64,000 bases of DNA from an uncultured Verrucomicrobiota bacterium (GCA_946613265.1 CAMOFK010000003.1:24790-88789); one strand, 5' to 3'; counted from the stretch's first letter, positions 4,535 through 58,414 are shown. The notes: a model not told the origin generated them from the letters alone. Program-made: numbers and translations.

Positions 4535-4544
4535 AACAAAGCGT

Positions 4545-4552
4545 ATTATACA
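4545..4552 (-). promoter_or_regulatory. Extended -10 promoter element (TGTATAAT) upstream of rnfE
   Basis: The minus strand reads TGTATAAT. The hexamer ends 10 nt before ATG 4534. Confidence 0.4.
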
Positions 4553-4890
4553 CTCTTTCGGGTGCGAATGCAAGGGCACCAAGCGTATTTTTCAAGTTTT
4601 TCAACCTCCCCCCGCCAGGCCATTCAGGGCGTTTCTTGCGTCCCCGCCGCCTGGTATCCCGCGCGTCGGCGCTCTCGCATTCGCATTCGAACGCCGCCTC
4701 GCGGCGGCGGGAAACCGGGCGCAAATCCACAAAATCGCAAACCGAACCCAAGCGTCGCAGTTGAAAGGCCGCAATCGCGATTGCGACCTTATGAGAAAAA
4801 CGGGCTGCAAATGTGCAGACAATCTCGGCTCTTGGGGGCGACTGCGCCTTGCCGAAACCGCAATTTTCACCTCCTTTGACGCTTGTTCCG

Positions 4891-5037
4891 GCGACTCCGG
4901 TCGCACGGCAAGGCGACTCCAGTCGCGAGCCAAAGCGACTCCGGTCGCGAGGCAAGGCGACTCCAGTCGCGAGCCAAAGCGACTCCAGTCGCGAAGCAAG
5001 GCGACTCCAGTCGCAAAAAGGGATGACTCTAGCCGTC
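4891..5037. repeat. Tandem array, 22-bp period, 6 good + 1 degenerate units of palindrome GCGACTCCAGTCGC plus 8-nt spacer
   Basis: Units start at 4891, 4913, 4935, 4957, 4979, 5001 and 5023. Spacers are ACGGCAAG/GAGCCAAA/GAGGCAAG/GAAGCAAG. Confidence 0.95.
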
Positions 5038-5491: not shown

Positions 5492-5565
5492 GCGGGCGTA
5501 GCTCAATGGCAGAGCTCCAGCCTTCCAAGCTGGCTACGAGGGTTCGATTCCCTTCGCCCGCTCCA
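5492..5565 (+). tRNA. tRNA-Gly (anticodon UCC)
   Basis: Cloverleaf folded by hand: acceptor GCGGGCG/CGCCCGC, anticodon loop CTTCCAA, T-loop TTCGATT, encoded CCA. Confidence 0.9.
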
Positions 5566-5572
5566 CGGGCGG

Positions 5573-5658
5573 GCCAGAGTGGCGTAATGGCAGCCGCGGC
5601 AGACTCAAAATCTGTTGCCCGCGAGGGCGTGAGGGTTCGAGTCCCTCCTCTGGCACCA
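5573..5658 (+). tRNA. tRNA-Leu (anticodon CAA)
   Basis: Acceptor GCCAGAG/CTCTGGC, anticodon loop CTCAAAA, long variable arm, T-loop TTCGAGT, encoded CCA. Confidence 0.85.
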
Positions 5659-5684
5659 GACGCGAGGCAGACGGCAAAACTACT

Positions 5685-5774
5685 GGAGGGGTGTCCGAGT
5701 GGTCGATGGTGCAACCTTGGAAAGGTTGTGTGGGCGCAAGTCCACCGGGGGTTCGAATCCCCCCCCCTCCGCCA
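5685..5774 (+). tRNA. tRNA-Ser (anticodon GGA)
   Basis: Acceptor GGAGGGG/CCCCTCC, anticodon loop TTGGAAA, long variable arm, T-loop TTCGAAT, encoded CCA. Confidence 0.85.
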
Positions 5775-19849: not shown

Positions 19850-20103
19850 GTCTTGTAGAGGGTTTTAAGGATAGGTTCATTTCCGCCACAAAAGATGGCC
19901 ATGAAGATGGTGTATCCGTCGATGGTATCAAGCTCGCACAGGAAAGAGTGCGGATGTTGAGGGGAAATGGAGATGCGGTCTGGTTCGCGCCAGAGAGCCG
20001 GGATGAGTTCGACGTCTGAGAGGGAGAGCGGGGCATCCTGCGGAAAATCGGGAAGAGGGAAGAGATTTCGCTTTTTTCGTCCTTCTGTTAAAACCCCCGA
20101 ATA

Positions 20104-20112
20104 TGATATAAT
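20104..20112 (+). promoter_or_regulatory. Extended -10 promoter (TGATATAAT) upstream of the methyltransferase operon
   Basis: The hexamer ends at 20112. A short ORF ATG lies 8 nt later, and the methyltransferase ATG is at 20236. Confidence 0.45.
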
Positions 20113-20120
20113 GTGTTGTC

Positions 20121-20225
20121 ATGAAACTCGCCCTCATAGTCTCGCTTCTCGTGATGAGCCTTGCCTTGAACGCGCAAACGATTCAAGGCAAGGTCTTTGG
20201 GCGATGTGAAGCAATCTCGTGTTGA
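20121..20225 (+). pseudogene. 34-codon ORF resembling the signal peptide and first residues of a TonB-dependent receptor (relic or leader peptide)
   Basis: MKLALIVSLLVMSLALNAQTIQGKVFGRCEAISC. It is too short for the ORF track, and its stop is followed by a GAGGA Shine-Dalgarno for the methyltransferase. Confidence 0.25.
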
Positions 20226-20235
20226 GGATTTGTAG

Positions 20236-21219
20236 ATGGCGAACAAAGACTTGAACAAGGCAAAGGCAGCGAAGAAAGACGAGTTCTATACTCGCCTTGA
20301 AGACATTGAATTGGAATTGAAGCATTATAGGCCTCACTTCAAGGGCAAGACGGTTCTTTGCAATTGCGACGATCCAAGATGCTCCAACTTCTTTCGCTAC
20401 TTCACCTTGAACTTTGAGGTGTTGGGATTGAAGAAGGTAATCGCCACTTGCTACAAGAACCAAGATGTCGATTTGTTCTCGCACCACGAATGCGAGAGGG
20501 CGGTGTATCAAATATACGAGGGAGACAAGAACCACAATAGAAAAGTAGATGAAGACGAAATCGAGGTGAAGTATTTGGAGGGTGATGGGGACTTTCGCTC
20601 CAAGGAGTGCGTTGCCCTTTTGGAAGAGGCAGATATTGTCGTCACCAATCCACCATTCTCCTTGTTTCGCGACTTCATAGCATTGTTGATTAAACACAAT
20701 AAGAAGTTCCTCGTCCTTGGAAACAAGAACGCCATAACATATAGTGAAATCTTCCCACTTTTCAAGGAAGACAAAATTTGGGTGGGCGTGATGCCTATGA
20801 CTCGTGAGATATATTTCGACGTGCCACAGGAATACATTGACGAAGGCTTGAGAATGAAGAAGGACAGAACCATCGTCAAGCAAGGTGACAAATATATGGC
20901 GAGGAGTCCTTCGATTTGGTTCACAAATCTTGAACACGACAAGCGGCACGAAGAACTACCATTGTTCAAGAAATACACGCCTCAAGAATACCCAAAGTAT
21001 GACAACTATAACGCGATTGAGGTTTCCAAGACGTGCGACATTCCTTGTGATTATGATGGGGTGATGGGTGTGCCAATCACCTTTATGGACAAGTACAATC
21101 CACACCAATTTGAGATAGTTGGAAATGAGGATACGCTTGCGATACCCAAAGGTCGTGGATATGTGAATGGCAAGCGATTGTATGGTAGAATTTTCATCAA
21201 GCGGAGAAGTGCGCTATGA
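20236..21219 (+). CDS. N6-adenine DNA methyltransferase, EcoRI-methylase-like family
   Basis: KDEFYTRLEDIELELKHY...CNCDDPRCSNFF...IVVTNPPFSLFRDF (NPPF motif IV). Confidence 0.75.
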   Translation: MANKDLNKAKAAKKDEFYTRLEDIELELKHYRPHFKGKTVLCNCDDPRCSNFFRYFTLNFEVLGLKKVIATCYKNQDVDLFSHHECERAVYQIYEGDKNHNRKVDEDEIEVKYLEGDGDFRSKECVALLEEADIVVTNPPFSLFRDFIALLIKHNKKFLVLGNKNAITYSEIFPLFKEDKIWVGVMPMTREIYFDVPQEYIDEGLRMKKDRTIVKQGDKYMARSPSIWFTNLEHDKRHEELPLFKKYTPQEYPKYDNYNAIEVSKTCDIPCDYDGVMGVPITFMDKYNPHQFEIVGNEDTLAIPKGRGYVNGKRLYGRIFIKRRSAL

Positions 21220-22307
21220 AGATTGAACTTCACGAAATCAAGGTGCGCGACCTTGTAAAGGGCTACAAGGATAGTGGCGACGAGGGAGTTGTCGCCTACG
21301 ATGGCAAACTTGATGTTCGTCCTCCATACCAAAGGGAGTTCATCTACAAGGACAAGCAAAGAAACGCGGTCATAGACACCATTATGAAGGGCTTCCCCCT
21401 CAATGTGATGTATTGGGTTTCGTGTGGGGATGGAAGGTTCGAGGTGATGGATGGGCAACAACGAACCATATCAATAGCCCAATACTTCGACAACGAGTTC
21501 TCCTTCAATATGCGCTACTTCCACAACCTTGAAGATGACGAGCAAGAGAGGTTCCTTGACTACACGTTGATGGTTTATTTCTGCGAGGGGTCGGACAGCG
21601 AGAAGCTGGATTGGTTCAGGACAATCAACATAGCAGGCGAACAACTCACCAACCAAGAGTTGCGCAACGCAGTTTATCATGGCCCATTCGTCCAAGACGC
21701 GAAGAAGTGGTTCTCAAAGGTGGGTGCGCCTGCGGCGAAGATTGGAGGAGACTATCTCGTTGGCGCGAGGGAAAGGCAAGACTACCTTGAAACTGCCATC
21801 AAGTGGATTTCTGATGGAGCGATAGAAGAGTATATGGCGACCCACGCCAAAGACCCCAATGCCAATGTTCTGTGGAACCACTTTCAATCAATCATAGGTT
21901 GGATTGAAGCGACATTCGTCCATACCAAGGACAGATTGAAAATCCTCAAGGGCGTTGATTGGGGAACTCTCTACAAGAAGTATGGGAGCAAGGTTCTTGA
22001 TACAAAGGCGATTGAGAAGCAAATAGCCAAGCTCCTCATGGACGACGATGTGACGAAGAAGAGTGGCATCGTCCCCTATGTGCTTGGCGAGGGCGAGAGG
22101 TGCTTGTCCATACGCGCATTTACTGAAGCGCAAAAGCTCGCTGCCTACACAAGGCAAGGTGGCGTGTGTAAGATGTGTGGCAAGAAGTTCAACATCGACG
22201 AGATGAACGCAGACCACATCAAGCCTTGGTCGAAAGGTGGGCATACCACGCCTGACAATTGCCAAATGCTTTGCTCGACTTGTAATTTCACCAAAGGGGC
22301 GAAGTAG
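21216..22307 (+). CDS. DUF262 (ParB/GmrSD-N-like, DGQQR) domain fused to C-terminal HNH nuclease
   Basis: ATGA overlap with the methyltransferase stop. Motifs RPPYQREFIY, MDGQQRTISI, and C-terminal CKMCGKKF...ADHIKPWSKGGHTTPDNCQMLCSTCN. Confidence 0.75.
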   Translation: MKIELHEIKVRDLVKGYKDSGDEGVVAYDGKLDVRPPYQREFIYKDKQRNAVIDTIMKGFPLNVMYWVSCGDGRFEVMDGQQRTISIAQYFDNEFSFNMRYFHNLEDDEQERFLDYTLMVYFCEGSDSEKLDWFRTINIAGEQLTNQELRNAVYHGPFVQDAKKWFSKVGAPAAKIGGDYLVGARERQDYLETAIKWISDGAIEEYMATHAKDPNANVLWNHFQSIIGWIEATFVHTKDRLKILKGVDWGTLYKKYGSKVLDTKAIEKQIAKLLMDDDVTKKSGIVPYVLGEGERCLSIRAFTEAQKLAAYTRQGGVCKMCGKKFNIDEMNADHIKPWSKGGHTTPDNCQMLCSTCNFTKGAK

Positions 22308-42843: not shown

Positions 42844-43770
42844 TCATTTCCCGTCTGCATCCGCCGGCGGGGACGGGAGGGCCTGAAGCTCGGCGACGGG
42901 GATTTTGCGCCCGGCGCCTGGGATGTCGGCCACGAAGCGCGGCAAGGAAAGGCCGCCTATGGCGAGCGCGCATTCGCGCTCGATTTCGCGCGCCTTCTCC
43001 AGCGGGACTCTGAAGCGGTCTATGCCGGCGACGGGATCGCAGACGAAGACGTAGTACGGGCGGATGCGCGCGGCGGTAAGCGCGCGGAAAAGCGCCAGCA
43101 TCTGCTCTGCGGAATCGTTCACGCCCTTGAGAAGGACGGTCTGGCAGGAGACGGGGATGCCGGCGCGCACGAGCAGCGCGGCCGCGTGCGCGGCTTGCGC
43201 GGTGACTTCGTCGGCGCAATTGAACTGCGTATTCACCCAGACTTTGCCGCATTCGCCCAGCCGCCCGGCGAGCGCAGGCGTGATGCGCGAAGGATTCGCG
43301 CTCAAAGCGCGCGTGCAGACGCGGACGATGTCTATCTGCGGAAGCGCCGCGAAGGCATCGACAAAGCGCATCACGGCGTCGTCGCCTAGCGTGAGCGGGT
43401 CGCCTCCGGAAACGAGGACGTCGCGAACGGCGGGATGCGCGCGCACGTATTCCACGCAGGCGGCGAGCGCGCCGTCGCTATCGACGATGTCTGCGCGGCC
43501 GAGGATGCCGCGGCGCGTGCAATGGCGGCAATTCATGAAGCATCTATCCGCGGCCATGACGAGGACGCGATCCGGGAAGCGCTGCCTGAGGCCGCGGCAG
43601 CCGGCGGAAGAGGACGTCTCGCCGAAGGGATCCGGCCCGTAGCCGGATGGCGCGGAATCGTCTTCGCCTTCGGCGGAGACCTGGAGAGCGAAACGCGGCG
43701 AAGCGGCGGCGAGTTTTCTCGCGTACTCGCATGCGTACTCGGGGAATGGCGGCATGGACTTCACGATCAT
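42844..43770 (-). CDS. KamA-family radical SAM protein (lysine 2,3-aminomutase-like)
   Basis: CFMNCRHCTRR (CxxxCxxC)...VLVSGGDPL...NTQFNCADEVT...QTVLLKGVND. Confidence 0.75.
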   Translation of the reverse strand: MIVKSMPPFPEYACEYARKLAAASPRFALQVSAEGEDDSAPSGYGPDPFGETSSSAGCRGLRQRFPDRVLVMAADRCFMNCRHCTRRGILGRADIVDSDGALAACVEYVRAHPAVRDVLVSGGDPLTLGDDAVMRFVDAFAALPQIDIVRVCTRALSANPSRITPALAGRLGECGKVWVNTQFNCADEVTAQAAHAAALLVRAGIPVSCQTVLLKGVNDSAEQMLALFRALTAARIRPYYVFVCDPVAGIDRFRVPLEKAREIERECALAIGGLSLPRFVADIPGAGRKIPVAELQALPSPPADADGK

Positions 43771-43804: not shown

Positions 43805-46800
43805 TCAGTTGAACATCAATTCGGGTATGAAGCAGAAGGCGAGCGCGTGGTCGCGCATGATCCGCGAGGAGACTTCGATATCGCGGCCCTTGAAATTCTT
43901 GAACGCATCCACCCATGCGCCCTCGAGGCGCGCGGTCATGCGCCCGGTGTTCGCGTGGTACGCGGTGACGACAAGCTCCTTCGGCGAATAGCGTATGCCG
44001 GTGCCAAGCGCTTTCGAGACCGCCTCCTTTGCGCACCAGAAGCGTATGAAGGCCTGCGAAGCGTTGGAGGATTGCGCCGCCAGCTCCAGCTCCTCCGAGG
44101 TGAACACGCCGCTTATGAACTCCTCGGAAAGATCGCGCGTCACAGACTCCACGTCGCAGCCGACGCGCGCGTTCGACGCCGCGAGCGCCACGACGAACTG
44201 CGCCGTGTGCGCGATCGCGATATCGATCTTCGCGGTGAGGAAGCGCCGCCAGTCGCCTATCGGCACGGGCTTGCCGTCGGGGTTCGGGCAGATCTGCACA
44301 TCCGCGTCGTTCCAGCGCGCCTGGTAGAAATCGCGCAGGAAGCGCCGCACGGCTTCCTTGGCGGCGAGCCGTCCTACGAGCCATTCCGTTCGCCTGGCCA
44401 CGGAGCCTTTCATGTCGGCGATCACGCGCCGCTCGGCATCGCAGAGGATGGCATGGCTCATGATCTTCAGCCACAGCGCCTCGTTGCGCTCGAAAAGCGC
44501 GTAGGGGACGTCGGTTATGAAAGCCGTCGCCACGTCCGTGGCGGGATTGCCGATCGCGTCGGCGGAGAGTTTCTGCGTGAGGAAGGCGTTGGCGGGCTGC
44601 AGGAGGAGCTGGCAGTATTCCTGCGGAACGCGCTCCGTCTGCTCTTCCCATCCGGATATGGAATAGATCACGTTGCCGTCGCCGCCGGTCACGGTAATGT
44701 CGCAAAGATGGCTCTGCGGCGTCACTCCGGTAAGGCGCATGTAGCAGTTCAACTCCGCGCCTTCCGCAGGCAGCGCGCCGAGGACGTCGAGGCGGCGAAG
44801 ACGCAGCGGAAGCGCGAACGCGCCGGGGAAGCGCTCCTGCGAACGCCACAGCTCGAAGCCGCCGGCGATCGCGTGGAGCAGCATCGGGTTCACAGCCCAT
44901 ATGGGGTACGCGGCGGCGGCCACAGCGCCGTTGGAAGGCTGCACGGCGACGGTGTAGTCCAAGCCTTCCTCGCCCCACGTCTCGGCGAATACGATCGCGC
45001 GCAGGCGCCTGCCGCACGCCAGCATGGCGGGGTAGATTTCGCGTCCGCTCCAATGCACGTAGCGCGGGCGCGTCAGCGGCGCGGCGGAGAACGGCACGCG
45101 CGGCGGAACTTTCTGCGTGAGCACCACCGTCGCCTCCATCACCGGCCACGTCCAGGCGGAGTCCGGCGAATCCTCGCGTATCTTCACCTTGATCGCGGCG
45201 GCGCCCGGCTCGGAGCTGGCGACGCGCTCGGCGCGTATGAAAAGTTTAAGCCGCCCGTCCTTGAAAGCGACGCGGCGGCGGCACACGAAGTCTTCGACGG
45301 CGGCGAGATTGCGGTTCGGCATCACTCTCATCGCGCACTCCGCGGCGATCTCTATGCCCACCGGGACGCTCAAAAGCAACAGGCCCTTGAGCTGGGAATC
45401 GGAATACGAAAGCTGGCTGGACCCGATCGCGAAATCTCCGAGGAACGGCTCGTTGGCGAGCGTGAACTCCTTGACGATTTCGCACATCACTCCGGGGCTG
45501 GACTCCAATTCGTCGGCGTCGGAAACGAGCGGCTGCATCGCGCCCGTGTCGAACTGACGGTTGCGCATCGCCTCCTTCTTGATCGCAGCCTTGCGTTCCG
45601 CCGCCTTGGCGCCCCTGCCCTTCGGCTCGGCGAGATACTGCGCGCCCGTCAGCCGACGCTCCGCGCCAAGCAGCGTCATACGCGGGAAGACGCGCGTAAG
45701 CCGCAGCTCCGCATCTCTGCGGACTTCGAGGGAAAGCGCGGCGGCGAAATCCAGCTTGCGCACCTTCCGGCCCGCGAAAAGCGCGCCGACGTCGCAAGGC
45801 ACGCCGGCGGCGACGAGCTGTGCCAGCGCGTGCTGAAGCTGCAATATCCCGCGGCGGTTGAGGGAATCCAGCGCGATCGTCGCGAACTCCCTCCCTTTCA
45901 GGACGTCTTCGGCCGCACTAGTCATCAGGCCGCGCGGCCCGACTTCGAGAAAGACGCGGTAGCCGTCTTCGTACATGCGCGAGATCGTCTCGGCGAAGCG
46001 CACGCTCTTCGCCCAGCGCCCGGCCGTCTCGGCGCGCGCGGCGCGCACGCGCCGCGGCGTCTGCGCCGCTTCGCCGCACGAATAGACTTCGATAAGCGGC
46101 TCGCTCTTCATCCAGCCGTCAGCGAATTTTCTGATGGCCGGCACGAGAGACGAGCATGCGGGAGTGTTGAACGGCCGGTCGATCGCCATGCGCATCGTGC
46201 GGATGCCGGCGTCGGCGAACATCTTCACGGCTTCGTCGGCGTATTCGGGATCGACGGCATAGACGCGGCGGCGCGGCGAAAACTCCATCGTCGGCGCTAT
46301 TTTCCCTTTCGGCATCGCGGCGACTACCGCGCCATCTTCGCCGGGATGGCGCATCAGCACGGAAAGCATCACCGTCTTTGCCAGCCCGCCGTGCGAGACG
46401 GCCTTGTCAACTATCCGGTATATCGCCTTGAGCGCGGCGACGCGCTCGTGGCGGCGCGGCGTGCCGGCCGCGCCGGACTTGAGAACGGCCGCCAGATCCC
46501 CGCCGACGCAGCCGACGACGCCATCGGGTGAAATCTTGAACGCCTCCATGAGGCGCGCGAGGGCGTCGCTCGCCGAATAGACGGCGACGAGCGCCTGCGC
46601 GTACGCGCCGGACGAGAATATGTCGGCGTCATGGCGGTAGTACGGCGCCGGCGGGAAAATGAAGTTCGAAGGCGTGAACTCCTCGTTGTCGTTCATCGCC
46701 TCTTCCAACTCGTCGAACGCCGCGCGGCACACCGGAAACTGCACGGCGATGTCGCGAAGCATGTCGGGATAGAACGATATGACGCCGGGGAAGATGAATG

Positions 46801-47140
46801 CCAGCTTGCCGCCGTTTTCGCCGCCCACGAGACGGTCGCGCGAATAGTACGTGCCGCTCTTGTCGCGAAGCCGCCGCGCGCCAGCGGCGATTCGCGCGTG
46901 CGCCGACGAAAGGCGCAGGCGCAGCTCCTGTATCGTCGAAGCGATCACCGCTATTCTCGCCGCGCCCCGCCCGGCGGAGCAGGTGTAGGCGATGTCGGCC
47001 AGCGGGACGTCGCGAACGCGATCGATGAAGCCGATCACGTTCGCGATCTCCTCCGCGAGCGCGTCGTCGTCCGCCGCGGAAACGACAATCAATTCACTGC
47101 CTGCTGCATCCACTGAACTTCCCCCGGTATAGAGCAGCAT
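43805..47140 (-). CDS. 1111-aa PKS-derived protein: KS-AT linker + AT-like + PS-DH-like (both with substituted catalytic residues) + Sfp-type 4'-phosphopantetheinyl transferase
   Basis: AT-like region has AFIFPGVISF, GVVGCVGGDLAA, RPFNTPA and FLEVGPRG. DH-like region has EPFLGDFAIGS and NPMLLHAIAGG. PPTase region has GCDVESV and FWCAKEAVSKALG. Confidence 0.65.
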   Translation of the reverse strand: MLLYTGGSSVDAAGSELIVVSAADDDALAEEIANVIGFIDRVRDVPLADIAYTCSAGRGAARIAVIASTIQELRLRLSSAHARIAAGARRLRDKSGTYYSRDRLVGGENGGKLAFIFPGVISFYPDMLRDIAVQFPVCRAAFDELEEAMNDNEEFTPSNFIFPPAPYYRHDADIFSSGAYAQALVAVYSASDALARLMEAFKISPDGVVGCVGGDLAAVLKSGAAGTPRRHERVAALKAIYRIVDKAVSHGGLAKTVMLSVLMRHPGEDGAVVAAMPKGKIAPTMEFSPRRRVYAVDPEYADEAVKMFADAGIRTMRMAIDRPFNTPACSSLVPAIRKFADGWMKSEPLIEVYSCGEAAQTPRRVRAARAETAGRWAKSVRFAETISRMYEDGYRVFLEVGPRGLMTSAAEDVLKGREFATIALDSLNRRGILQLQHALAQLVAAGVPCDVGALFAGRKVRKLDFAAALSLEVRRDAELRLTRVFPRMTLLGAERRLTGAQYLAEPKGRGAKAAERKAAIKKEAMRNRQFDTGAMQPLVSDADELESSPGVMCEIVKEFTLANEPFLGDFAIGSSQLSYSDSQLKGLLLLSVPVGIEIAAECAMRVMPNRNLAAVEDFVCRRRVAFKDGRLKLFIRAERVASSEPGAAAIKVKIREDSPDSAWTWPVMEATVVLTQKVPPRVPFSAAPLTRPRYVHWSGREIYPAMLACGRRLRAIVFAETWGEEGLDYTVAVQPSNGAVAAAAYPIWAVNPMLLHAIAGGFELWRSQERFPGAFALPLRLRRLDVLGALPAEGAELNCYMRLTGVTPQSHLCDITVTGGDGNVIYSISGWEEQTERVPQEYCQLLLQPANAFLTQKLSADAIGNPATDVATAFITDVPYALFERNEALWLKIMSHAILCDAERRVIADMKGSVARRTEWLVGRLAAKEAVRRFLRDFYQARWNDADVQICPNPDGKPVPIGDWRRFLTAKIDIAIAHTAQFVVALAASNARVGCDVESVTRDLSEEFISGVFTSEELELAAQSSNASQAFIRFWCAKEAVSKALGTGIRYSPKELVVTAYHANTGRMTARLEGAWVDAFKNFKGRDIEVSSRIMRDHALAFCFIPELMFN

Positions 47141-47150
47141 CCATGCGCAG

Positions 47151-48086
47151 CTACAGCCTCGCTACGCCGTCGGCTACTTCGCGGCGGTACGCCGCGACGG
47201 TGCGGCGCAAACCTTCGGCCAGCGGGATCGACGGCTTCCAGCCGAGCGAACGGATGAGCGAAGTGTCGCAGAGCTTGCGCGGCGTGCCGTCGGGCTTCGT
47301 CGCGTCCCAAACGATGCGCGCGCCGGAGCCTGTCGCGTTCTTCACGGCTTCGGCGAGTTCGCGTATCGAAACCTCTTCGCCGCTGCCGACATTCATGACG
47401 TCGGGAGGATTGTCGAGCGAAAGCGCGAATAGGCAGGCGGACGCGAGATCATCGACATGGAGGAATTCGCGCAGCGCGCTTCCCGTCCCCCAGAGCGTGA
47501 CGGCGTCGCCGGCGGTCTCGAATTTCCGTATCAGCGTCGGCAGGACGTGGCCGTGGACGATATCGTAGTTGTCGCCCGGTCCGTAGAGGTTGGTGGGCAT
47601 CAGCGAATGGTAGAGGACGCCGCTTTCGCGCCGCAGGAATTCGCAGAGCTTCAAGCCGGAAATCTTCGCGAGCGCGTATCCCTCGTTCGTCTTTTCGAGT
47701 TCGCTCGTCAAAAGCGCGCTTTCCGGGATCGGCTGCGGCGCAAGGCGCGGATATATGCACGTCGAGCCGAGAAACAGCAGGCGCTTCACGCCGGCCTTGT
47801 ACGCCCCCCAGACCGTGTTCAGCGCTATCATCTCGTTCTCGTAGAGGAACAAGGCGTTCGCCGCGCTGTTCGCGCCGATCCCGCCGACGCGCGCGGCGGC
47901 TATCACCGCGACATCCGGCTTCTCTTCCTCGTAGAACGCGCCCACCGCGCAGGCGTCGAGCAGATCGAGCTGCGAATGGCTGCGCACGACGACGTTCTTG
48001 AAGCCGGCGGCGTCCAGCGCGCGGCACACCGCGCTGCCGACCATCCCCTTGTGGCCGGCTACGTATATCTTGGATCTGGCGTCCAT
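47151..48086 (-). CDS. fcl: GDP-L-fucose synthase
   Basis: ATG at 48086 (the track start at 48098 is GTG). [13 protein letters not shown]...GSTCIYP...YALAKI...NLYGPGDN. Confidence 0.9.
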
Positions 48087-48132
48087 GCTTTTCTCCACAT
48101 TGGTTTGTCCGCTAACATTGCGCCGCGGCGTC

Positions 48133-49140
48133 TCAAACTTCGCGAAGCTTGCGCTCTTTCTCCGCGAGCGCGAGATCGGCTTCGACCATGAGTTTGACGA
48201 GTTCTTTGAAAGTCACTCGCGGCTGCCAGCCAAGCTCGCGCTTCGCTTTCGTCGCGTCTCCCAGTAGCTGGTCCACCTCCGTGGGGCGCGCGTAGCGCGC
48301 ATCGTATTCGACGTATTCGCGCCAATCGAGGCCGACGGCGCCGAAGGCCGCTTCGAGAAACTCCTTGACCGAATGCATCTCGCCGGTGGCCAAGACGAAA
48401 TCGTCCGGCTTGTCGTGCTGGAGTATCCTCCACATGCCCTCGACGTAATCCACCGCGTAGCCCCAATCGCGCAGCGATTCGATATTGCCCATGTAGAGCT
48501 TCTTCTGGAGACCGGCCTTGATGCGCCCGACCGCACGCGTGATCTTCCTCGTCACGAACGTCTCGCCGCGCCGCGGCGACTCGTGGTTGAAGAGTATGCC
48601 GTTCGACGCGAACATTCCGTACGCCTCGCGATAGTTCCTGACCGCCCAGTACGCGTAGAGCTTCGCGACGGCGTAGGGCGAGCGCGGGTAGAACGGCGTC
48701 GTCTCCTTCTGCGGGACTTCCTGGACGAGTCCGAAAAGCTCGGAGGTCGAAGCCTGGTAGAACTTCGTCAGCTTCGCGCGCCCCGTGAGCCGTATCGCCT
48801 CCAGAAGCCGCATCGTCCCCAGCGCGTCCACGTCGCCCGTGAATTCCGGGGAATCGAAAGAAACGCGCACATGGCTCTGCGCCGCCAGATTATAAACTTC
48901 GTCCGGCTGTATCTCGTAGATCAGGCGCCCGAGATTGGATGAATCGGCCATGTCGCCGTAATGGAGGAACAGCTTCACTCCGTTCACGTGCGGATCCTGG
49001 TAGAGATGGTCGATTCGCTCCGTGTTGAATGTCGAGGCTCTGCGTATCAGCCCGTGGACTTCGTAGCCCTTGGAAAGGAGCAACTCGGTCAAATAGCTGC
49101 CGTCTTGCCCTGTTATTCCGGTTATCAGTGCTCTTTTCAT
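48133..49140 (-). CDS. gmd: GDP-mannose 4,6-dehydratase
   Basis: [14 protein letters not shown]...QASTSELFG...[12 protein letters not shown]...FNHESPRRG. Confidence 0.95.
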
Positions 49141-51662: not shown

Positions 51663-52271
51663 ATGATCGCCAGATTTGCAACTTTCGCGGTGGCCGCGCT
51701 TCTTCTCGCTGGCTGCACAACGCCAACTACGCGCATCGACATCCGCAACGACCGCGGGCCGGCAGTCGCCGCGCTCGACTATCGCGACATCAAGGAAGCC
51801 GTAAGCGAGCTCGCGCAGAGCCTTTTCAGGACCGGGCGGCTGAATCGCGCGGACGGCAAACTCAACGTGCTGACCGTCGGCAATGTAGAGAACGACACGA
51901 TGCAGCATCTCGATACGGACATCCTCACCAACTACCTCGTCGAAGAAATGGTGAACTCCGGGCAAGTCCTCGTATCTTCGGCGATCTCGCACGGCGCTTC
52001 GCAGCGCGACGAGATGATCGGCGCCGTGCGCTCCGTGCGCGGCGACCCGGAATTCAACCAGTCCACCGTCGCCGCGCAAGGCCAGCTCGTAGATGCGAAC
52101 CTATCGCTCAAAGGCAAGATCGTGCAGCGCGAGCTTCGCATGGACGGCGGCGACAAGCAAGTGGAATACTACTTCTCGATGATGCTCACGGACACCCACA
52201 CGGGGCTGAGGCTCTGGCAAAAGCAGCACCTCATCGGCAAGCGCACGGATGCGCGCACGCCGACATGGTGA
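51663..52271 (+). CDS. LpoB/FlgO-like (COG3417-type) lipoprotein
   Basis: Lipobox LLLAGC. LNVLTVGNVENDT...LTNYLVEEMVNSGQ...YYFSMMLTDTHTGLRLW is the typical LpoB-fold pattern. Confidence 0.6.
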   Translation: MIARFATFAVAALLLAGCTTPTTRIDIRNDRGPAVAALDYRDIKEAVSELAQSLFRTGRLNRADGKLNVLTVGNVENDTMQHLDTDILTNYLVEEMVNSGQVLVSSAISHGASQRDEMIGAVRSVRGDPEFNQSTVAAQGQLVDANLSLKGKIVQRELRMDGGDKQVEYYFSMMLTDTHTGLRLWQKQHLIGKRTDARTPTW

Positions 52272-52317
52272 TGCGCCGCACCCCCATCAACACAACACGC
52301 GAAACCAGGCGACTACG

Positions 52318-53586
52318 ATGAAAAAGGCTTTTCTACTCTTGGCGCTTTTTACGGCGGCTCTCGCAAACGCCGCACCGGTGACAGCGCGCGGCACCGGGCG
52401 CAACGCGGACTACCGCGCGGCGATCTACGACGCTCTCGCGCAGGCGATGAGCCAGGTCCAGGGGCTCAGCCTCCAGGAATCCAGAGAATCGCTTCTCGAC
52501 GCGCTTGAACAATCAAAGCGCTCGACGGGGAAAGAGGACTTCACGCTCAGCGATGCGCGCGAAGCCTTGAAGCAATCCGTCAGCGCAAAGACCGAAGGGC
52601 GGATTCTCGGCTACGAGATACTGAAAGAGGAGTTCGACCAGCAGACGAAGACCTGGCGCGTCGAAGTCGAAGCGAAGATGCCCGGCCGCTACATCGTAGG
52701 GCGAGATCCCGACAATCTGCGGCGCATGGTCGTAATGCCCTTCCACTCCTTGACGCCGGAGTTCTCCCTCGACGGCGCAAAAATCGAATGCGCGAAAGGC
52801 TGCGAAGAAATCGCAGCCGCCCTCGACACCTGCCTGACGCATACGCGCAAATTCACGATGCTCGACAGGCGCTTCAACACCGAGACGCTCGCGGAGCTTT
52901 CGCGCCTCGACATGGCCAACTCCTCCCCCGCAGATCTCGGACGCTTCGGCCAGCTCCTCGTAACCGATTACATGGTGATCGGCACGGTGAAATATCTGCC
53001 GCGCGCCGCGGCCGTCTCCAACTCCTACACCGGCATGACGGCCGCGCAGGATTCCACCTTCCTCGAAATCTCGTACCGCGTGCTGCTGGTCCCGACTTCA
53101 CAGCTCAAGTGGGCGGGCGTCGTGAAAATCCCATACTCCGCATGCGGCGGCGCGACGGGCGAAGAGACGCTCTCCAACGCCATCGAATACGCCGCGGAGA
53201 CGATATGCGAAGAGATAATATCCAACATCTATCCTATTCGCGTCGCCGCGCACGCCGCATTCGAACTCGTCCTGAACCAGGGCGGACGCAATGTCAGGAT
53301 CGGCGATGAATTCGAAGTCTTCAAGCGCGGCGCGCCCATCGTCGATCCTACGAACGGCGAATCGCTCGGCTTCACGGAAGACATGATCGCGCGCATTCGC
53401 GTCACTCGCGTGACGCCGAAGGCAAGCTACGCCATCGTGACCGAAGGGACGCCGTGCGGCGATATCGAAATCGGCGCGATCGTCCGGCGTCCCGCCTGGG
53501 GAGGCGCGGGCGCGTACGCCCCGCAAGGCGCTGCGACGCCTGTGCAGGTCGCTCCGGACGGCGGAGTGAAAGTGCCGTGGATGTAA
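52318..53586 (+). CDS. Secreted protein: LPP20-like N-domain + CsgG/HfaB-like core + C-terminal beta domain
   Basis: SPI signal ALANA-AP. GTGRNADYRAAIYDALAQAMSQVQG (LPP20-like). RMVVMPF...THTRKFTMLDR...LLVTDYMVIGTV (CsgG-like). Confidence 0.45.
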   Translation: MKKAFLLLALFTAALANAAPVTARGTGRNADYRAAIYDALAQAMSQVQGLSLQESRESLLDALEQSKRSTGKEDFTLSDAREALKQSVSAKTEGRILGYEILKEEFDQQTKTWRVEVEAKMPGRYIVGRDPDNLRRMVVMPFHSLTPEFSLDGAKIECAKGCEEIAAALDTCLTHTRKFTMLDRRFNTETLAELSRLDMANSSPADLGRFGQLLVTDYMVIGTVKYLPRAAAVSNSYTGMTAAQDSTFLEISYRVLLVPTSQLKWAGVVKIPYSACGGATGEETLSNAIEYAAETICEEIISNIYPIRVAAHAAFELVLNQGGRNVRIGDEFEVFKRGAPIVDPTNGESLGFTEDMIARIRVTRVTPKASYAIVTEGTPCGDIEIGAIVRRPAWGGAGAYAPQGAATPVQVAPDGGVKVPWM

Positions 53587-53642
53587 ACATCCCGCAAACC
53601 GCAGAAACAGCTTCGACAAAGAAAAGGAAAGGAAGACAACAT

Positions 53643-55334
53643 ATGAAGCTAGCAGCAATGCCTGTATGCGCATTGGCGGCGGGCGCCGCCTTCTGCGCGT
53701 TCGCCCAGGAAATGGGGGAAATCGTCGAGCAGCCCGCGGAGACGCCGGCGCAGCTCGCGCAAGATGCCGTCCAGACCGTGCAAGAGAGCGCGCGGGCCGA
53801 TCAGGGCGTGCAAGTCGTGGAAGAGGCGCAGAAAACGCCGCCCGCGGAATACACCGGCGCGAAGAACGCCAACGACGCGATGGTAGAATGGATCGGCGCG
53901 CGGGGCTACATCGAAGGCTATTCCACGGAGCGCGGATACTTCCTGCAAATCGGCGTGGCGCGCGACAACTCCATGAATCCCGTCGAAGAGGACTTCATGA
54001 CCAAGCGCGAACTGCTGTACCGCGAGGCGCAGCTGCGCGCGAAAATCGAAATCAGCGCCCTCGTGGAGCGCGAAGCCAGCGGCGCCAACTGGAAACAGGG
54101 GCTTGACGAAAAGCAGGTCAAGGAGTTCGAGGCGCGCTTCGCAAACGAAATCAACGCCATGAACGAGATGAAGCGCAAAGTCGCCAAGCTCATGGTCGCC
54201 CTCGATACCGCGGAGACGGAAGCGCTCAAGGGCGTCACGACGACCGACCGCCTCAACAGACTCGTCGATGCAGCGATAAAGAAACTCGACAGCTCCTACG
54301 CCGCCGGAGAAATCGCCGCCGAAAAGCAGGCGCGCTACGAAGAAATCCGCAGAGCCTACGAAAGCGCCAAAGCCGCCGCGGACGAGCTGGAGCTGAAGAA
54401 GAGCGACCTCTTCCCGGATCAGACTGTCGGCGCGAAGATCGACACCGCCGCGACGCTCCGCCTGCACGGCGTCGTTCCCCTGCATACCATCGAGTCCTAC
54501 GACGGCAAGGAATACCAGATCGCCGTGGCGGCGATCTGGAGCCCGAAGCTCGAAGAGCGCGCGATGAAGATCCTCGCGCGCAAAGAAGTCGCGGCCGGCA
54601 AACCGACGGAAGACCGCACTCTCCAAGAGTATCTGCGCGCGAACAGAGAGGCGCTGGCCGCGATGGTCGGCTCTCGGCAGTTCTTCGACAAGAACGGGAG
54701 GCTGTACTTCTACGGAATAAGTGCGCAGGATCTGCCTGAAGACGCGATCGAGAAAGACGAGGCGATGACCTTCGCGAACGCGATGGCCATACAGTCCGTG
54801 CTCATGTCGCTCTACACCGAAGGGACCGGCGTGACCAAGGCGTCCGCCGCGCTCGCCAAGCGCAAGAAACGCGCCGGCGAAGTCGTGAAGACGCTGTCGG
54901 AGAACATGTACGAATCCACTCCGCAGAATATGATCGTCAGCGGGCTTGGCAAGGTTTACAGCTTCGAGACCGAAAGCCCCGTCACGCACAAGCCCATCTA
55001 CATCTCCGTAGCGGCGGTGGATGCCGCGCTCGCCGCGAAAGCGCCGGCGATCAAGCGCGCCTGGGATGTCAATGCGTCGAACACCGTGCGCACGCTCAAC
55101 GCGATCGCCGGCGAGCGCCAGGGCGCCGAAGACGCCTACCAGGACGCGAAGAACTCGAAGGCCGAATTCGAGAACGCGCGCAGGAACGCGCGCGATGCAA
55201 TCAACGCTGAAGTCAAGCGCGCGCGCGGCGGCGCCGTCCAGACCGCGCCCGTCGCGCCGCGCGCCCCGCAGAAGCCCGGCAAAGCCTCGCAGGGAATCTT
55301 CGGCGCGGACGCCGCGGTCAGCGACGACTTCTAA
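53643..55334 (+). CDS. Hypothetical secreted coiled-coil protein (563 aa)
   Basis: Signal peptide ending AFCAFA-QE. Long helical regions. I recognise no family. Confidence 0.55.
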   Translation: MKLAAMPVCALAAGAAFCAFAQEMGEIVEQPAETPAQLAQDAVQTVQESARADQGVQVVEEAQKTPPAEYTGAKNANDAMVEWIGARGYIEGYSTERGYFLQIGVARDNSMNPVEEDFMTKRELLYREAQLRAKIEISALVEREASGANWKQGLDEKQVKEFEARFANEINAMNEMKRKVAKLMVALDTAETEALKGVTTTDRLNRLVDAAIKKLDSSYAAGEIAAEKQARYEEIRRAYESAKAAADELELKKSDLFPDQTVGAKIDTAATLRLHGVVPLHTIESYDGKEYQIAVAAIWSPKLEERAMKILARKEVAAGKPTEDRTLQEYLRANREALAAMVGSRQFFDKNGRLYFYGISAQDLPEDAIEKDEAMTFANAMAIQSVLMSLYTEGTGVTKASAALAKRKKRAGEVVKTLSENMYESTPQNMIVSGLGKVYSFETESPVTHKPIYISVAAVDAALAAKAPAIKRAWDVNASNTVRTLNAIAGERQGAEDAYQDAKNSKAEFENARRNARDAINAEVKRARGGAVQTAPVAPRAPQKPGKASQGIFGADAAVSDDF

Positions 55335-55440
55335 GCACGCGGCGGCAAGGCGGAAGCGGACGCGCCGGGCGGCGCCCGGACGCGTCCGCGCTTCTTTCGA
55401 CCCACGAAACATTCTTGCGGCGAACATGTCGGCTTTCACA

Positions 55441-56802
55441 ATGCGAAAACTCCTGCATGGCGGCGCCTGCGCGGCGGCGCTGGGCGCGTTTCTCGCGGCG
55501 AACGCCGCGCGCGGCGCTTCGCTGGCGACGCTGACGAACCGCTACAATCTGAACATAAAAGACGAAGCATCGGGAGTGTACGAGTGGGCGGAGGAGGGGC
55601 TGCTCTTCGTGCAAGTCAGGCTCGCGGAAGCGAGCGGAGACGCCGCAGAGGAAATGGATGCGCAAATCCTCGCCGAAGAGCATCGCCTGCTTTTCGAGTG
55701 GCTGGCCGCGCAGGCGACGGCGGAGCGCAAGGATCCTCCGCTCCCGCAGGGCATGGAGCGCCTTCGCGCGCTCGTTCGCGCGCACATGCCGACGTGGGAG
55801 TACGATGCCGATTGGAACTACAACCTCAAAGGCCCGCATTTTTCGCGGCATGAAATCGGCGAGCGCGTCTGCTGCGCCGTGTATGAAAAGGACAAAGTCC
55901 TCGCGACGATGCCGCCGTCCTTCAAAAAAAGCGCGCCTCCGGAAATATGGCTGCGCGGCGCGAAGGAGCTTTTCTCCTCCAGGGCGCAAACGCTCGCGTC
56001 GCGTCCTTTCCTCTGGGAAGCGGGACTCGTGGATCTGCTTGCGCTTTCTCTCGACGACGGCGCTTCGCCCGCCGGCTGGGTGCGGGAATTCGGCGACGCC
56101 GCTGCCGCGCACTGGAAGGAATACACGGCCGTCGAAAGCGAACTCGCCGCGTACATGGAGAACTCCGCCACGGCGAAGGCGATGGCCGCGGAGAAGCTCC
56201 GCCTCGAAACCCTGCCGGACGAAATCACCTACGAATGGGGAGCCGTAAAGCCGAAAATCGAAAAGACGCAGACGACGGAAACGACGACGAACGCGATCGA
56301 CGGCGCGCTCTTCGAAGTCGTCTCCACCACGAAGACCACGGAGCGCGTCACGCGACTCTTGCGAAAAGTCGTGACGCCGCGCGCGGTCGATCCACGCTTC
56401 GAGAAACTCTTTCTCTCCGCAGGCGCGATGGCGAATGCGGCAGCTCCGCGCACGGCGAAAGGCCGCGAAGCCGAAGCCGCGTTCCTCGCGAAAAGCGCGC
56501 TCCTGCCGGCGCAGCGCGAACGCGCGCTTGTCGAAGCGCTGCGCGAGAATCCCGGCGACAAGGCGCTGTGGAATCTGCTTGGCCGTGCAATGTCCGCGCG
56601 CGGCGACACGCTTGGCGCGCTCGCGTGCCTGCGCAACGCGCTGCGTCTCGACGCCGCCTACGACTACGCCCTCGCGAATCTCGCCGGAATATACGACCGC
56701 CTCGGCAGGCACGCGCTCGCGCAAAGCGCGGCGATCGCCGCCTACGCCTTGGCAGACAACGATTGGTGCAGGAAAGAAGCCCTGCGCATCCTGGAAAAAT
56801 AG
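55441..56802 (+). CDS. Hypothetical secreted protein with C-terminal TPR-like repeats
   Basis: Alternative ATG at 55426. Signal-like N-terminus. C-terminal ALWNLLGRAMSARGDTLGALACLRNALRLDAAYDYALANLAGIY is TPR-like. Confidence 0.5.
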   Translation: MRKLLHGGACAAALGAFLAANAARGASLATLTNRYNLNIKDEASGVYEWAEEGLLFVQVRLAEASGDAAEEMDAQILAEEHRLLFEWLAAQATAERKDPPLPQGMERLRALVRAHMPTWEYDADWNYNLKGPHFSRHEIGERVCCAVYEKDKVLATMPPSFKKSAPPEIWLRGAKELFSSRAQTLASRPFLWEAGLVDLLALSLDDGASPAGWVREFGDAAAAHWKEYTAVESELAAYMENSATAKAMAAEKLRLETLPDEITYEWGAVKPKIEKTQTTETTTNAIDGALFEVVSTTKTTERVTRLLRKVVTPRAVDPRFEKLFLSAGAMANAAAPRTAKGREAEAAFLAKSALLPAQRERALVEALRENPGDKALWNLLGRAMSARGDTLGALACLRNALRLDAAYDYALANLAGIYDRLGRHALAQSAAIAAYALADNDWCRKEALRILEK

Positions 56803-56832
56803 AACCCGCTAGCGCCGCGCCGCATCCCGCAA

Positions 56833-57834
56833 ATGAATTCCATCGCCGCCATAGCGCTCGCGTTCGCAGCTTCGCTCGCCTTCGAACAGGAAACGGCGAT
56901 CGACGACGCGCTCGCCGCGAAAAACATCTGCCGCGGCTACGACGCCGCCAGGCAGGCGTTCACGGCGTACGGCACGGCGTCGGCGCGCCGCCCGGAAGAT
57001 ATGCCGGCTTCCGAGGAATGGGAACTGCGCAGGCGACTCTTCTTCGCCGCGCATGCGAAAGCGCGCAAGGAAATCGCCTTCGCCATGGCTGCGCAGATGC
57101 AGGCGTTCGACGCGACCGCGCGTTCCTCCGGAGAAGGCAGGCGGACGAAAAGCGCGCTCGCCGGAGTTTCCGCGTCGTCCAGAGACGACGCGATAGGCTT
57201 CGCGCCGCTGGCGGTGCGCTGCGGCGTCCGCGACGGCGCATGCACGCTGACGCTGGCTCTCGAGTGGAGCGAAGAGCGCGAACGCCGCGCGCGCGCTTCG
57301 CTCGCCGGCGCTCTCGCCCCCTCCCCGGATTGGGAGCGCGAGATGAAAGAATATTTCGCGCGGCTCGGCGAAGATTCTCTCGCGCCCTTCGGGCTGTTCG
57401 AAGATTCTCGCGGCTTCGTGCATTTCTTCGGCGCGGATATTGCCGAACACGCCGCAGAGGAATCGCGCACGCGCGCGAATATCGCGGAAAAGCGCGCGCA
57501 GACGCGCGCGCTCGCCGCCTTGCAGGCCGCATGCGACGGCACAGCCGCGTTTTCCGCGCACGCGCTCGCCGGCGCGGCGCTCGCGGATGGCGCGGAAGAC
57601 GACGCCAAAGCCATCGCCGGCGCGGCGAAGCGCGCCGCGCGCGGCGCCATGCGCCCTTTCGCGCCAGTGGCCGAAAAGCCGCTCGCGGCGCATGCGGGAT
57701 GCGCGTCGCGCAGATACATCGTCTATGCCGCAGTTCCGGAAGCGACGCCGCAAGAAGCCGGCGAGGCCGCGCCGCAAACGCCCGCGCGCGTACAAATCTG
57801 GAATCCCGCGACGCAACGCTTCGAACAACGCTGA
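56833..57834 (+). CDS. Hypothetical secreted protein (333 aa)
   Basis: Signal peptide MNSIAAIALAFAASLA-FEQ. No recognisable domain. Confidence 0.5.
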   Translation: MNSIAAIALAFAASLAFEQETAIDDALAAKNICRGYDAARQAFTAYGTASARRPEDMPASEEWELRRRLFFAAHAKARKEIAFAMAAQMQAFDATARSSGEGRRTKSALAGVSASSRDDAIGFAPLAVRCGVRDGACTLTLALEWSEERERRARASLAGALAPSPDWEREMKEYFARLGEDSLAPFGLFEDSRGFVHFFGADIAEHAAEESRTRANIAEKRAQTRALAALQAACDGTAAFSAHALAGAALADGAEDDAKAIAGAAKRAARGAMRPFAPVAEKPLAAHAGCASRRYIVYAAVPEATPQEAGEAAPQTPARVQIWNPATQRFEQR

Positions 57835-57880
57835 AATCTCCGCCCCCCCCGTCCACGACAGGAAAGGATCAATAACAACT

Positions 57881-58414
57881 ATGAAGAGAATAGTCTGCAC
57901 AGCATTCGCGGCGCTCGCCGCAGCGGCGGCATCCGCGCAAGTCCTGACGCCGCAGACAGGCGTCGCCAACGACCACGGCAACCAGCCGGAACTCGCGCAG
58001 CATCACGTCGTCTTCCAGCCGCGCACGGCGGAAACGGGCTACGGCTACGACGACGGCATGACCGTCGCGGGCTTCACGTTCCTCGCGTGGGCGGCGCCGA
58101 ATTCCTCCTGGGACGTGCACGGCGTGCGCTTCAATTTCGGCTGGGGGGCGCATCGCGAAATGATCGGCCTGGATACGGGCTTCTTCGGCTCGTGCGCGTA
58201 TCTCGGCGGCGTCGCCGCCACGATCGCGGGCAACTACTCCAGCGGCAACACCGACGGCGTCGCCCTCGGATGCGTCAATGTCGCCGACGCGCGCATGCGC
58301 GGCTTGCAGCTCGGCATCGTCAACTACGCCGGCGAGCTGCAAGGCGTGCAACTCGGCCTGCTCAACTTCAACACGGCGGGAATAACGCTGCCGGTGCTTA
58401 ATATCGGCTTCTGA
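57881..58414 (+). CDS. Secreted Gly-rich beta-repeat protein (GxQxGxxNxA repeats)
   Basis: Signal AAASA-QV. Repeats GVALGCVNVAD / RGLQLGIVNYAG / QGVQLGLLNFN. Confidence 0.55.
   Translation: MKRIVCTAFAALAAAAASAQVLTPQTGVANDHGNQPELAQHHVVFQPRTAETGYGYDDGMTVAGFTFLAWAAPNSSWDVHGVRFNFGWGAHREMIGLDTGFFGSCAYLGGVAATIAGNYSSGNTDGVALGCVNVADARMRGLQLGIVNYAGELQGVQLGLLNFNTAGITLPVLNIGF

Follow-up and report, generated by a model that had tools for sequence, protein, structure and literature searches.

A single gene was analysed in a stretch of 64,000 nucleotides from an uncultured Verrucomicrobiota bacterium (GCA_946613265.1 CAMOFK010000003.1:24790-88789), the whole of which is referred to below as the window. 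The gene occupies positions 43805-47140 of the minus strand and encodes a protein of 1111 aa, designated P0001, in which a linker, an acyltransferase (AT)-like domain and a dehydratase (DH)-like domain are fused to a phosphopantetheinyl transferase (PPTase). As judged from sequence comparisons, P0001 is probably the sole, housekeeping PPTase of the organism, carried at the C-terminus of a catalytically dead remnant of a pfaBC-like system, in which a separately encoded ketosynthase (KS) is paired with an AT-DH-PPTase protein. The housekeeping role would follow from the enzyme being alone in the cell. An initial annotation of the window, based on the sequence only, had described the protein as a relic of a polyketide synthase (PKS) with a working PPTase; the key functional point that it missed is that neither the genome nor its order appears to have another PPTase.

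The 1111-aa open reading frame (ORF) of the initial annotation was reproduced by an ORF call and translation. The codon-position GC of the frame followed the pattern of genuine genes in the host genome (~64% GC), and at least 560 full-length homologues of 59-83% identity were detected. The source of P0001 was a gut or rumen Kiritimatiellae bacterium. The Pfam search revealed a KS-AT linker at aa 17-82 (CurL-like_PKS_C and RhiE-like linker, E ~3e-9), Acyl_transf_1 at aa 115-420 (37.5 bits, cut-off 32.7), PS-DH at aa 722-831 (23.5 bits, 0.2 below the cut-off of 23.7) and ACPS at aa 992-1103 (E 1.3e-18). The linker was also aligned to residues 493-585 of CurL, in agreement with the earlier reading of the N-terminus as a KS-to-AT linker. 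In the full-length AlphaFold2 model, the mean predicted local distance difference test (pLDDT) score was 88.6 and exceeded 85 in the linker domain, with aa 472-512 being the sole internal segment below 50. Foldseek matched the N-terminal half to PKS AT domains (template-modelling (TM) score ~0.8, root-mean-square deviation ~4 Å), and about 900 columns of the full model to the KS-AT-DH modules of CalA3, MAS and PsoA. A separate model of aa 531-1111, comprising the DH-PPTase didomain, had a pLDDT of 93.1 and a predicted TM score (pTM) of 0.90, and its DH-like domain resembled the DH domains of MlnB, CurF, CurH, a MAS-like protein and PksJ (TM 0.70-0.77). Thus, the profile matches, models and structural searches agreed with the AT and DH folds proposed before: P0001 possesses the alpha/beta core, small subdomain and flanking KS-AT linker of an AT, and the double-hotdog fold of a PKS dehydratase.

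The catalytic columns of the AT-like domain were assigned through the solved KS-AT structure of CurL and those of the DH-like domain by profile alignment against 150 representative homologues. The site counts given below refer to 75 fusion proteins of relatives, and the active comparison set comprised 106 catalytically intact homologues. Val212 of P0001, within the GCVGG motif, aligned with the nucleophilic Ser of GHSVG in CurL, and Asn325, within PFNT, with the catalytic His of AFHS; GVISF took the place of the GQGSQ loop of CurL, which reads GEGSQ in active homologues. The AT-like domain therefore has neither the GHSxG Ser, nor the catalytic His, nor the GQGSQ/GEGSQ loop. Among the relatives, position 211, the His of GHS, was never His, position 212 was occupied by Ala (42), Gly (16), Ser (13) or Val (4), and position 325 was Asn in 72 of 75, versus His in all 106 active homologues. 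In the DH-like domain, Phe570 of LGDFAIG aligned with the His of LxDHxxG and His756 of NPMLLHAIAG with the Asp of DPVLLDAAGQ, so that both the catalytic His (HxxxGxxxxP/LxDHxxG) and the catalytic Asp (DxxxQ/H) are missing. Position 570 was never His in the relatives (F49, Y16, S5, T2, A2, G1) and position 756 varied widely (E31, A11, Q10, D10, G8, H4). According to their entry titles, the inactive-mutant PDB entries CurJ H978F and CurK H996F carry the same His-to-Phe change as that at Phe570. All the motifs quoted by the initial annotation were found at their places. The variability of the former catalytic columns is as expected for sites freed of their old constraint.

The PPTase domain presented the opposite picture, as its designation as intact had implied. 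Both signatures were located (GCDVESV at aa 994-1000 and FWCAKEAVSKALG at aa 1034-1046), and the residues H978, D996, E998, K1038, E1039 and K1043 were invariant in 75 of 75 relatives. P0001 thus retains the residues for Mg2+ and CoA, namely the Asp and Glu of GxDxE and the Glu and Lys of WxxKEAxxK, the latter motif defining a PPTase subtype described in PMC6042109. The N-terminal (aa ~903-986) and C-terminal (aa ~992-1103) halves each aligned to AcpS chains, and in the AlphaFold2 models the domain formed two alpha+beta lobes, that is, a pseudo-dimer of about 220 residues; the Pfam match to 4PPT_N was weak (E 0.088). The best PDB sequence match was the PPT domain of the fungal fatty acid synthase (FAS) alpha subunit (4v58, E 1e-6), with GCDVES aligned to rvGvDVEsv. 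No PPTase chain appeared among the top 50 Foldseek matches for aa 531-1111 because DH matches dominated there.

To what extent the cell depends on this enzyme was indicated by searches across genomes, all of which were metagenome-assembled genomes (MAGs). The six-frame search of the host genome gave a single PF01648 match, P0001, even at E values of up to 1. Exactly one match was obtained in 39 of 41 genomes (the host and 40 relatives), mostly in a frame of ~1100 aa or longer. The genomes G027, G030, G033, G037 and G040, which possess neither the fusion nor the KS gene described below, encoded instead a short PPTase that was only 26-32% similar, and the apparent short PPTase frame of G025 turned out to be the fusion cut by a contig end. 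In 151 genomes of the class, nearly all had one PPTase, located in a short frame of 130-400 aa in other orders and in a long frame in the order of the window. The same search detected a PPTase in 10 of 10 bacterial control genomes. The idea that AcpS was missing merely because the MAG is incomplete was rejected in view of the 41- and 151-genome pattern together with these controls.

There is a demand for such an enzyme. A type II FAS is encoded in the host genome (FabH, FabF and FabZ-like genes and AcpP), along with at least two further carrier proteins. A normal FabD (~310 aa) was found in every genome, which makes the AT-like domain dispensable for malonyl transfer. No Pfa megasynthase and no multidomain synthase was detected in the host genome, PfaD/NMO not having been searched for separately, and the KS genes seen there were confined to the FabF type, one small KS-like ORF and the gene of the dead KS.

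Two other loci of this genome concern carrier proteins and KS-like frames. On contig C8 (L023:3355-5313, minus strand), a gene for an 83-aa acyl carrier protein (ACP) adjoins a gene for a 539-aa fusion of an AMP-binding enzyme and an ApeI/FabA-like dehydratase, with a second PP-binding match just upstream of this system, which is likely a further client of the sole PPTase. A KS-like ORF of contig C26 (L022:4112-6040, plus strand) is a 642-aa open frame with a provisional start and a KS domain only in its last 320 residues; it is situated a few kb away from the FabH-FabF-FabZ cluster and overlaps a well-coded ORF (4233-4949) in another frame.

According to the initial annotation there was no KS, which held for this locus only, and its conclusion that the KS had been lost proved wrong. 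A 468-aa Cys-less KS (P0122) is encoded in the same genome on a 5.3-kb contig (C85, L019:3760-5166, minus strand). It has DAGNLS in place of DTACSS and is 67% identical to the KS encoded at the locus of the relative P0068, where the gene for a 473-aa KS shares 4 bp with the beginning of the fusion gene and its product shows DAGLLS for DTACSS and EADGSG for EAHGTG, with NIGH kept. The dead KS gene is translationally coupled upstream of the fusion in most relatives. Neighbourhoods were compared at 80 species-representative loci (named records, all from gut or rumen Kiritimatiellae-type MAGs), and in 64 of the 73 that could be judged the dead KS gene was located directly upstream of the fusion gene; the genome of the window has the minority arrangement, in which the two genes are separated. 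The column of the catalytic Cys was never Cys in 65 KS sequences, being occupied by M, A, I, L, S and V among others. The dead KS was present in 35 of the 41 genomes and was not found in the five genomes that also have no fusion, nor in G014, which has the fusion. The KS was thus retained, and the conserved unit consists of a KS gene and a linker-AT-DH-PPTase gene. The KS-to-AT linker of P0001 is the expected docking element for this separately encoded dead KS.

The origin of the unit was traced by an exhaustive homologue search with the fusion, which yielded 765 representative clusters (E <1e-30). Most of them have intact FPGEGSQY, GHSxGE, YHTP, LxDHTLG, DPVLLDAAGQ and PPTase motifs, in proteins of the architecture AT-DH-PPTase (~1100 aa), AT-ACP-DH-PPTase (~1313 aa) or KS-AT-...-ACP-DH-PPTase (1600-1900 aa). 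The names of cluster members in the wider family gave nothing beyond 'phosphopantetheinyl transferase'. The gene of an active 1313-aa member was preceded by that of a 2781-aa pfaD-pfaA fusion and a separate gene for a 482-aa KS, and the gene of an active 1104-aa member by a ketoreductase (KR) gene and a KS gene. The best family model of the active relatives was PfaA (TIGR02813, 584-692 bits). The descent from an iterative type I FAS/PKS suggested by the initial annotation, with the dead domains kept as a pseudo-enzyme scaffold, was sustained. As parent family, PfaA/PfaBC-like subunits of lipid synthases resembling polyunsaturated fatty acid (PUFA) synthases were indicated by the PfaA scores and the pfaD-pfaA neighbours of the active relatives; an origin from enediyne synthases (PKSE) was not supported by the architectures and the family model, on which this comparison was based.

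In a quick FastTree tree of 131 full-length rows, built with the catalytic columns removed and giving local support values only, all AT-dead/DH-dead rows and one AT-intact/DH-dead row formed one clade (support 100), nested within a clade of active 1100-aa proteins. All 24 members of the dead clade were devoid of the DH His. The basal members P0129, P0132, P0134, P0136, P0140 and P0146 kept the AT His, and in P0129 the entire AT motif set (GHSxG/YHxP) was still present with the DH His gone. This distribution indicates that the decay was stepwise and affected the DH domain first. P0001 thus most likely derives from a pfaBC-like subunit of a Pfa-type 'secondary lipid' synthase with an integrated PPTase: it has the full-length homology and domain order of such a subunit and its clade lies inside the active family, while its KS, AT and DH domains are not competent and no PfaA/PfaD partner was found in the genome, PfaD/NMO not having been sought separately. 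At two active loci (L020:13342-15247 and L021:13926-15883), the AT-(ACP)-DH-PPTase gene was followed by a gene for a conserved protein of ~96-99 aa without a Pfam match and then by one for a ~530-aa Phosphodiest protein (PF01663); this pair may form a conserved end section of the active pathway that the dead clade does not have.

The term 'relic' used by the initial annotation undersells the protein, since all domains of the fusion and the dead KS are under purifying selection and P0001 is not a decaying relic. Ratios of non-synonymous to synonymous substitution rates (dN/dS) were calculated pairwise by the Nei-Gojobori method at unsaturated dS (~0.7-0.8), with the pair L033/L036 excluded due to a frame problem in L036. 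The comparison of the window with L029 (dS ~0.8) gave 0.20 for the AT-like domain, 0.12 for the DH-like domain and 0.09 for the PPTase; over all pairs the ranges were 0.10-0.25, 0.04-0.24 and 0.03-0.18, respectively, and 0.04-0.24 for the dead KS. The identity to relatives amounted to 62% in the AT-like domain, 61-66% in the DH-like domain and 70-75% in the PPTase. Conservation over the full length extended down to 39% identity and covered 548 or more species-level genomes, without any truncated form. P0135 (576 aa) and P0158 (240 aa), considered as natural truncations that would show the AT and DH parts to be dispensable, were both gene fragments at contig ends. A total of 26 positions were conserved at 95% or more in the dead clade only, including Cys138, Gly213, Phe324, Asn325 and Cys329 in the vicinity of the old AT pocket.

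These observations could be explained as follows. The ancestor would have carried the full synthase; with the loss or absence of a stand-alone PPTase, AcpP would have come to depend on the integrated one. The remaining pathway and the chemistry of the synthase could then have decayed, starting with the DH domain. The present enzyme would phosphopantetheinylate AcpP and other free carrier proteins in trans. The whole protein would be strongly selected because its PPTase appears to be the only carrier-protein activator of the cell. The scaffold might not be sheddable as the PPTase is predicted to be packed rigidly on the DH-like domain in the didomain model, and the surfaces of the dead KS, AT and DH domains, natively ACP-binding, may recruit apo-carrier proteins to a PPTase adapted to a megasynthase. 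The scaffold would thus provide structural support, ACP docking or both; of the docking or regulatory role that the initial annotation suggested for the dead domains, docking is plausible. From the linker domain and the post-AT helices, the canonical KS-AT assembly would be expected, and the complex is likely dimerised through the KS, (KS)2(AT-DH-PPT)2, in the manner of type I PKS.

Several known systems share parts of this arrangement. The closest are the uncharacterised clusters of the Renibacterium salmoninarum type, with fused pfaDA and pfaBC-PPTase genes (bioRxiv 10.1101/2025.10.24.682833; Shulse and Allen, PMC3098273), and the PKS-integrated PPTases SAV_7361 and SACE_2343, also uncharacterised (PMC6042109). 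The pfaBC-PPTase systems have the same order, KS followed by linker-AT-(ACP)-DH-PPTase, the same split between KS and AT with overlapping genes and the WxxKEAxxK motif, and they are homologous to P0001 over the full length in one alignment with 26-32% identity. Unlike in these systems, the KS, AT and DH domains of the P0001 unit are all dead, an ACP domain is missing, the cell appears to have no other PPTase and there is no pfaA/pfaD partner in the genome (with the limit on PfaD/NMO given above), whereas the known examples are presumed to be active synthases from genomes that also have AcpS or Sfp. In enediyne PKSE (KS-AT-ACP-KR-DH-PPTase), too, a C-terminal PPTase follows the DH domain of an iterative type I PKS, but the active relatives of P0001 are PfaA-like, with the ACP directly before the DH domain and pfaD-pfaA adjoining, a distinction drawn from architecture and family model and with no PKSE sequence compared. 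The fungal FAS alpha subunit likewise has its PPTase fused at the end of a fatty-acid/polyketide megasynthase. There the PPT domain modifies the ACP of the active synthase to which it belongs; the P0001 polypeptide contains neither an ACP nor an active synthase, so its PPTase must act in trans.

Another parallel is offered by sole broad-specificity PPTases of primary metabolism, such as PcpS of Pseudomonas aeruginosa, which is reportedly the only PPTase of that bacterium and essential, as Finking et al. are said to have found in 2002. In both cases, a single non-AcpS PPTase must provide holo-AcpP for fatty-acid synthesis and serve the other carrier proteins as well; all three ACPs of P. aeruginosa are modified by PcpS (PMC5686131). 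PcpS is a free-standing enzyme of ~240 aa, whereas here the PPTase makes up the last 220 residues of a 1111-aa pseudo-enzyme paired with a 468-aa dead KS. No description of a sole PPTase fused to a dead scaffold was found in the literature searched.

Several points weigh against the proposal of a sole PPTase on a supporting scaffold. The MAG is 82% complete, so the claim that the PPTase is alone rests on the many-genome pattern, with no closed genome, and the count covers enzymes detectable with PF01648, which a highly divergent PPTase may escape. The packing of the PPTase on the DH-like domain is that of a predicted model. The selection on about 1350 non-catalytic residues (KS, AT and DH) exceeds the usual need of structural support, and the dead KS is conserved at least as well as the fusion. 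This strong selection, together with the 26 clade-specific positions, leaves room for an unrecognised function of the scaffold. Such a function could be one of its own, with the dead KS/AT/DH module and the PPTase as two activities, for instance the binding of acyl-ACP, acyl-CoA or lipid that regulates phosphopantetheinylation or the type II FAS, or a new chemistry based on lineage-specific residues. Purifying selection on the dead domains close to that on the PPTase, the higher identity of KS (63-71%) than of fusion (52-62%) within the genus, and the dead-clade-specific residues near the AT pocket speak for it. The former catalytic columns vary, however (KS Cys, AT 212, DH 570 and DH 756), which points to relaxed rather than re-tooled sites, the invariant clade-specific positions are few and scattered, and the conserved gene neighbours point to no ligand or partner; this possibility was thus considered unlikely. 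The form in which the complex of dead KS and AT-DH is a pseudo-enzyme with a new role, either as an ACP-capturing or acyl-sensing gate on the sole PPTase or as an organiser of the type II FAS, has a modest chance of being correct. If it is, a whole megasynthase module has been turned into a regulatory or docking device.

Assigning the fusion to a working secondary-lipid or glycolipid pathway, as a subunit acting with the products of the GDP-fucose, KamA-like and GT2/GtrA genes of the window, appears very improbable. Its attraction lies in the gene order, as the fusion starts 10 bp downstream of a GDP-fucose synthase-like gene and ends 34 bp upstream of a radical SAM gene on one strand, and in the chain-length-factor role of Cys-less KS domains of Pfa synthases (Shulse and Allen, PMC3098273), so that the dead domains might be non-catalytic, chain-length-factor-like partners of enzymes encoded elsewhere. 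Yet a chain-length factor requires an active KS partner, and the one KS that pairs with the fusion is dead, too; the genome yielded neither a PfaA/PfaD-like megasynthase nor a further multidomain KS, again without a separate search for PfaD/NMO. The GDP-fucose genes precede the fusion only in the window and two close relatives (loci L045 and L116), none of the 80 loci had a GT2/GtrA gene adjacent to the fusion, and the radical SAM gene is also found where the fusion is missing and is linked to it in one sublineage only. The reading of the AT-like and DH-like parts as a functionless, decaying relic, carried as neutral baggage on the PPTase gene, is scarcely credible. It would fit the loss of catalytic residues and the absence of a partner synthase, but is contradicted by the dN/dS values of 0.04-0.25, by the conservation over the full length without truncated forms and by folds predicted with high confidence.

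PKS-integrated PPTases have been described but not characterised, and sole PPTases of the Sfp type are familiar as free enzymes. In the present case, an entire order of Kiritimatiellae from gut and rumen seems to rely, for the essential holo-ACP step, on a PPTase that survives only within a two-protein assembly of 1580 residues with three dead synthase domains. It may represent a natural evolutionary ratchet, in which an enzyme of secondary metabolism takes over a housekeeping job and drags along a pseudo-enzyme scaffold, with intermediates of the decay still extant. Genome-mining tools would label these genes as a PKS/PUFA cluster, although they are probably not natural-product genes. The system also offers a testable case for the roles of non-catalytic megasynthase domains. 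The features of the fusion gene and its neighbours are collected in Table 1.

Table 1. Coordinates of P0001, its domains and motifs, and the adjoining genes in the window.
Feature	Residues (aa)	Position (nt)	Strand	Basis
Whole gene P0001 (linker/AT-like/DH-like/PPTase)	1-1111	43805..47140	-	ORF, codon-position GC, homologues
KS-to-AT linker	15-105	46826..47098	-	Pfam, CurL alignment, pLDDT
AT-like pseudo-enzyme domain	110-465	45746..46813	-	Pfam, Foldseek, dN/dS
GCVGG replacing GHSxG	210-214	46499..46513	-	CurL alignment, 75 relatives
PFNT replacing (A/Y)(F/Y)H(S/T)	323-326	46163..46174	-	CurL alignment, relatives versus active homologues
Flexible inter-domain linker	472-512	45605..45727	-	pLDDT <50
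DH-like double-hotdog pseudo-enzyme domain	541-850	44591..45520	-	Foldseek, Pfam PS-DH, dN/dS
Phe at DH catalytic His position	570	45431..45433	-	Alignment to 106 active homologues
His at DH catalytic Asp (DxxxQ) position	756	44873..44875	-	Alignment to DPVLLDAAGQ
Two-lobed PPTase domain, intact	886-1106	43823..44485	-	Pfam ACPS, AcpS alignments, invariant residues
GCDVES, Mg2+-binding Asp996 and Glu998	994-999	44144..44161	-	Invariant 75/75; fungal FAS PPT alignment
WCAKEAVSK, WxxKEAxxK PPTase motif	1035-1043	44012..44038	-	K1038, E1039, K1043 invariant
KamA-family radical SAM gene, downstream neighbour		42844..43770	-	TIGR00238, 190.9 bits versus cut-off 199.2
GDP-fucose synthase-like gene, upstream		47151..48098	-	Pfam
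GDP-mannose 4,6-dehydratase gene, upstream		48133..49140	-	Pfam

The genes adjoining the fusion were compared with those of its relatives. The radical SAM gene adjoins the fusion in 14 of 19 loci of the same genus; among 70 species loci it does so in 34, each of them in the sublineage of at least 53% identity. It was rejected as a third member of the unit, being present in fusion-less genomes, without linkage in the order's other families and scored below the KamA-family cut-off. Its longest ORF has 308 aa, and as homologue alignments begin at residue 7-9 or ~40-47, translation may in fact start further downstream than the first ATG. The product could be an EpmB-like enzyme. On the other side, the GDP-fucose synthase-like and GDP-mannose 4,6-dehydratase genes sit where most relatives carry the dead KS gene; a glycolipid pathway formed by the GDP-fucose and GT2 genes with the fusion was rejected on the basis of the 80-locus neighbourhood comparison. 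With their linkage restricted or absent, the radical SAM, GDP-fucose and GT2 genes are lineage-specific neighbours outside the conserved unit.

Rfam and tRNA scans of the window gave nothing bearing on the fusion; three tRNA genes (Gly-TCC, Leu-CAA and Ser-GGA) were located at 5492-5774 of the plus strand. Two regions of the window differed in composition from the rest. At 20001-22000, the GC content falls to 0.47, versus 0.56-0.69 elsewhere, and this segment may be foreign or non-coding DNA. At 52000-58000, an AT skew of 0.17-0.26 extends over about 6 kb and coincides with plus-strand ORFs at 52249-56802, which may encode a biased or repetitive protein.

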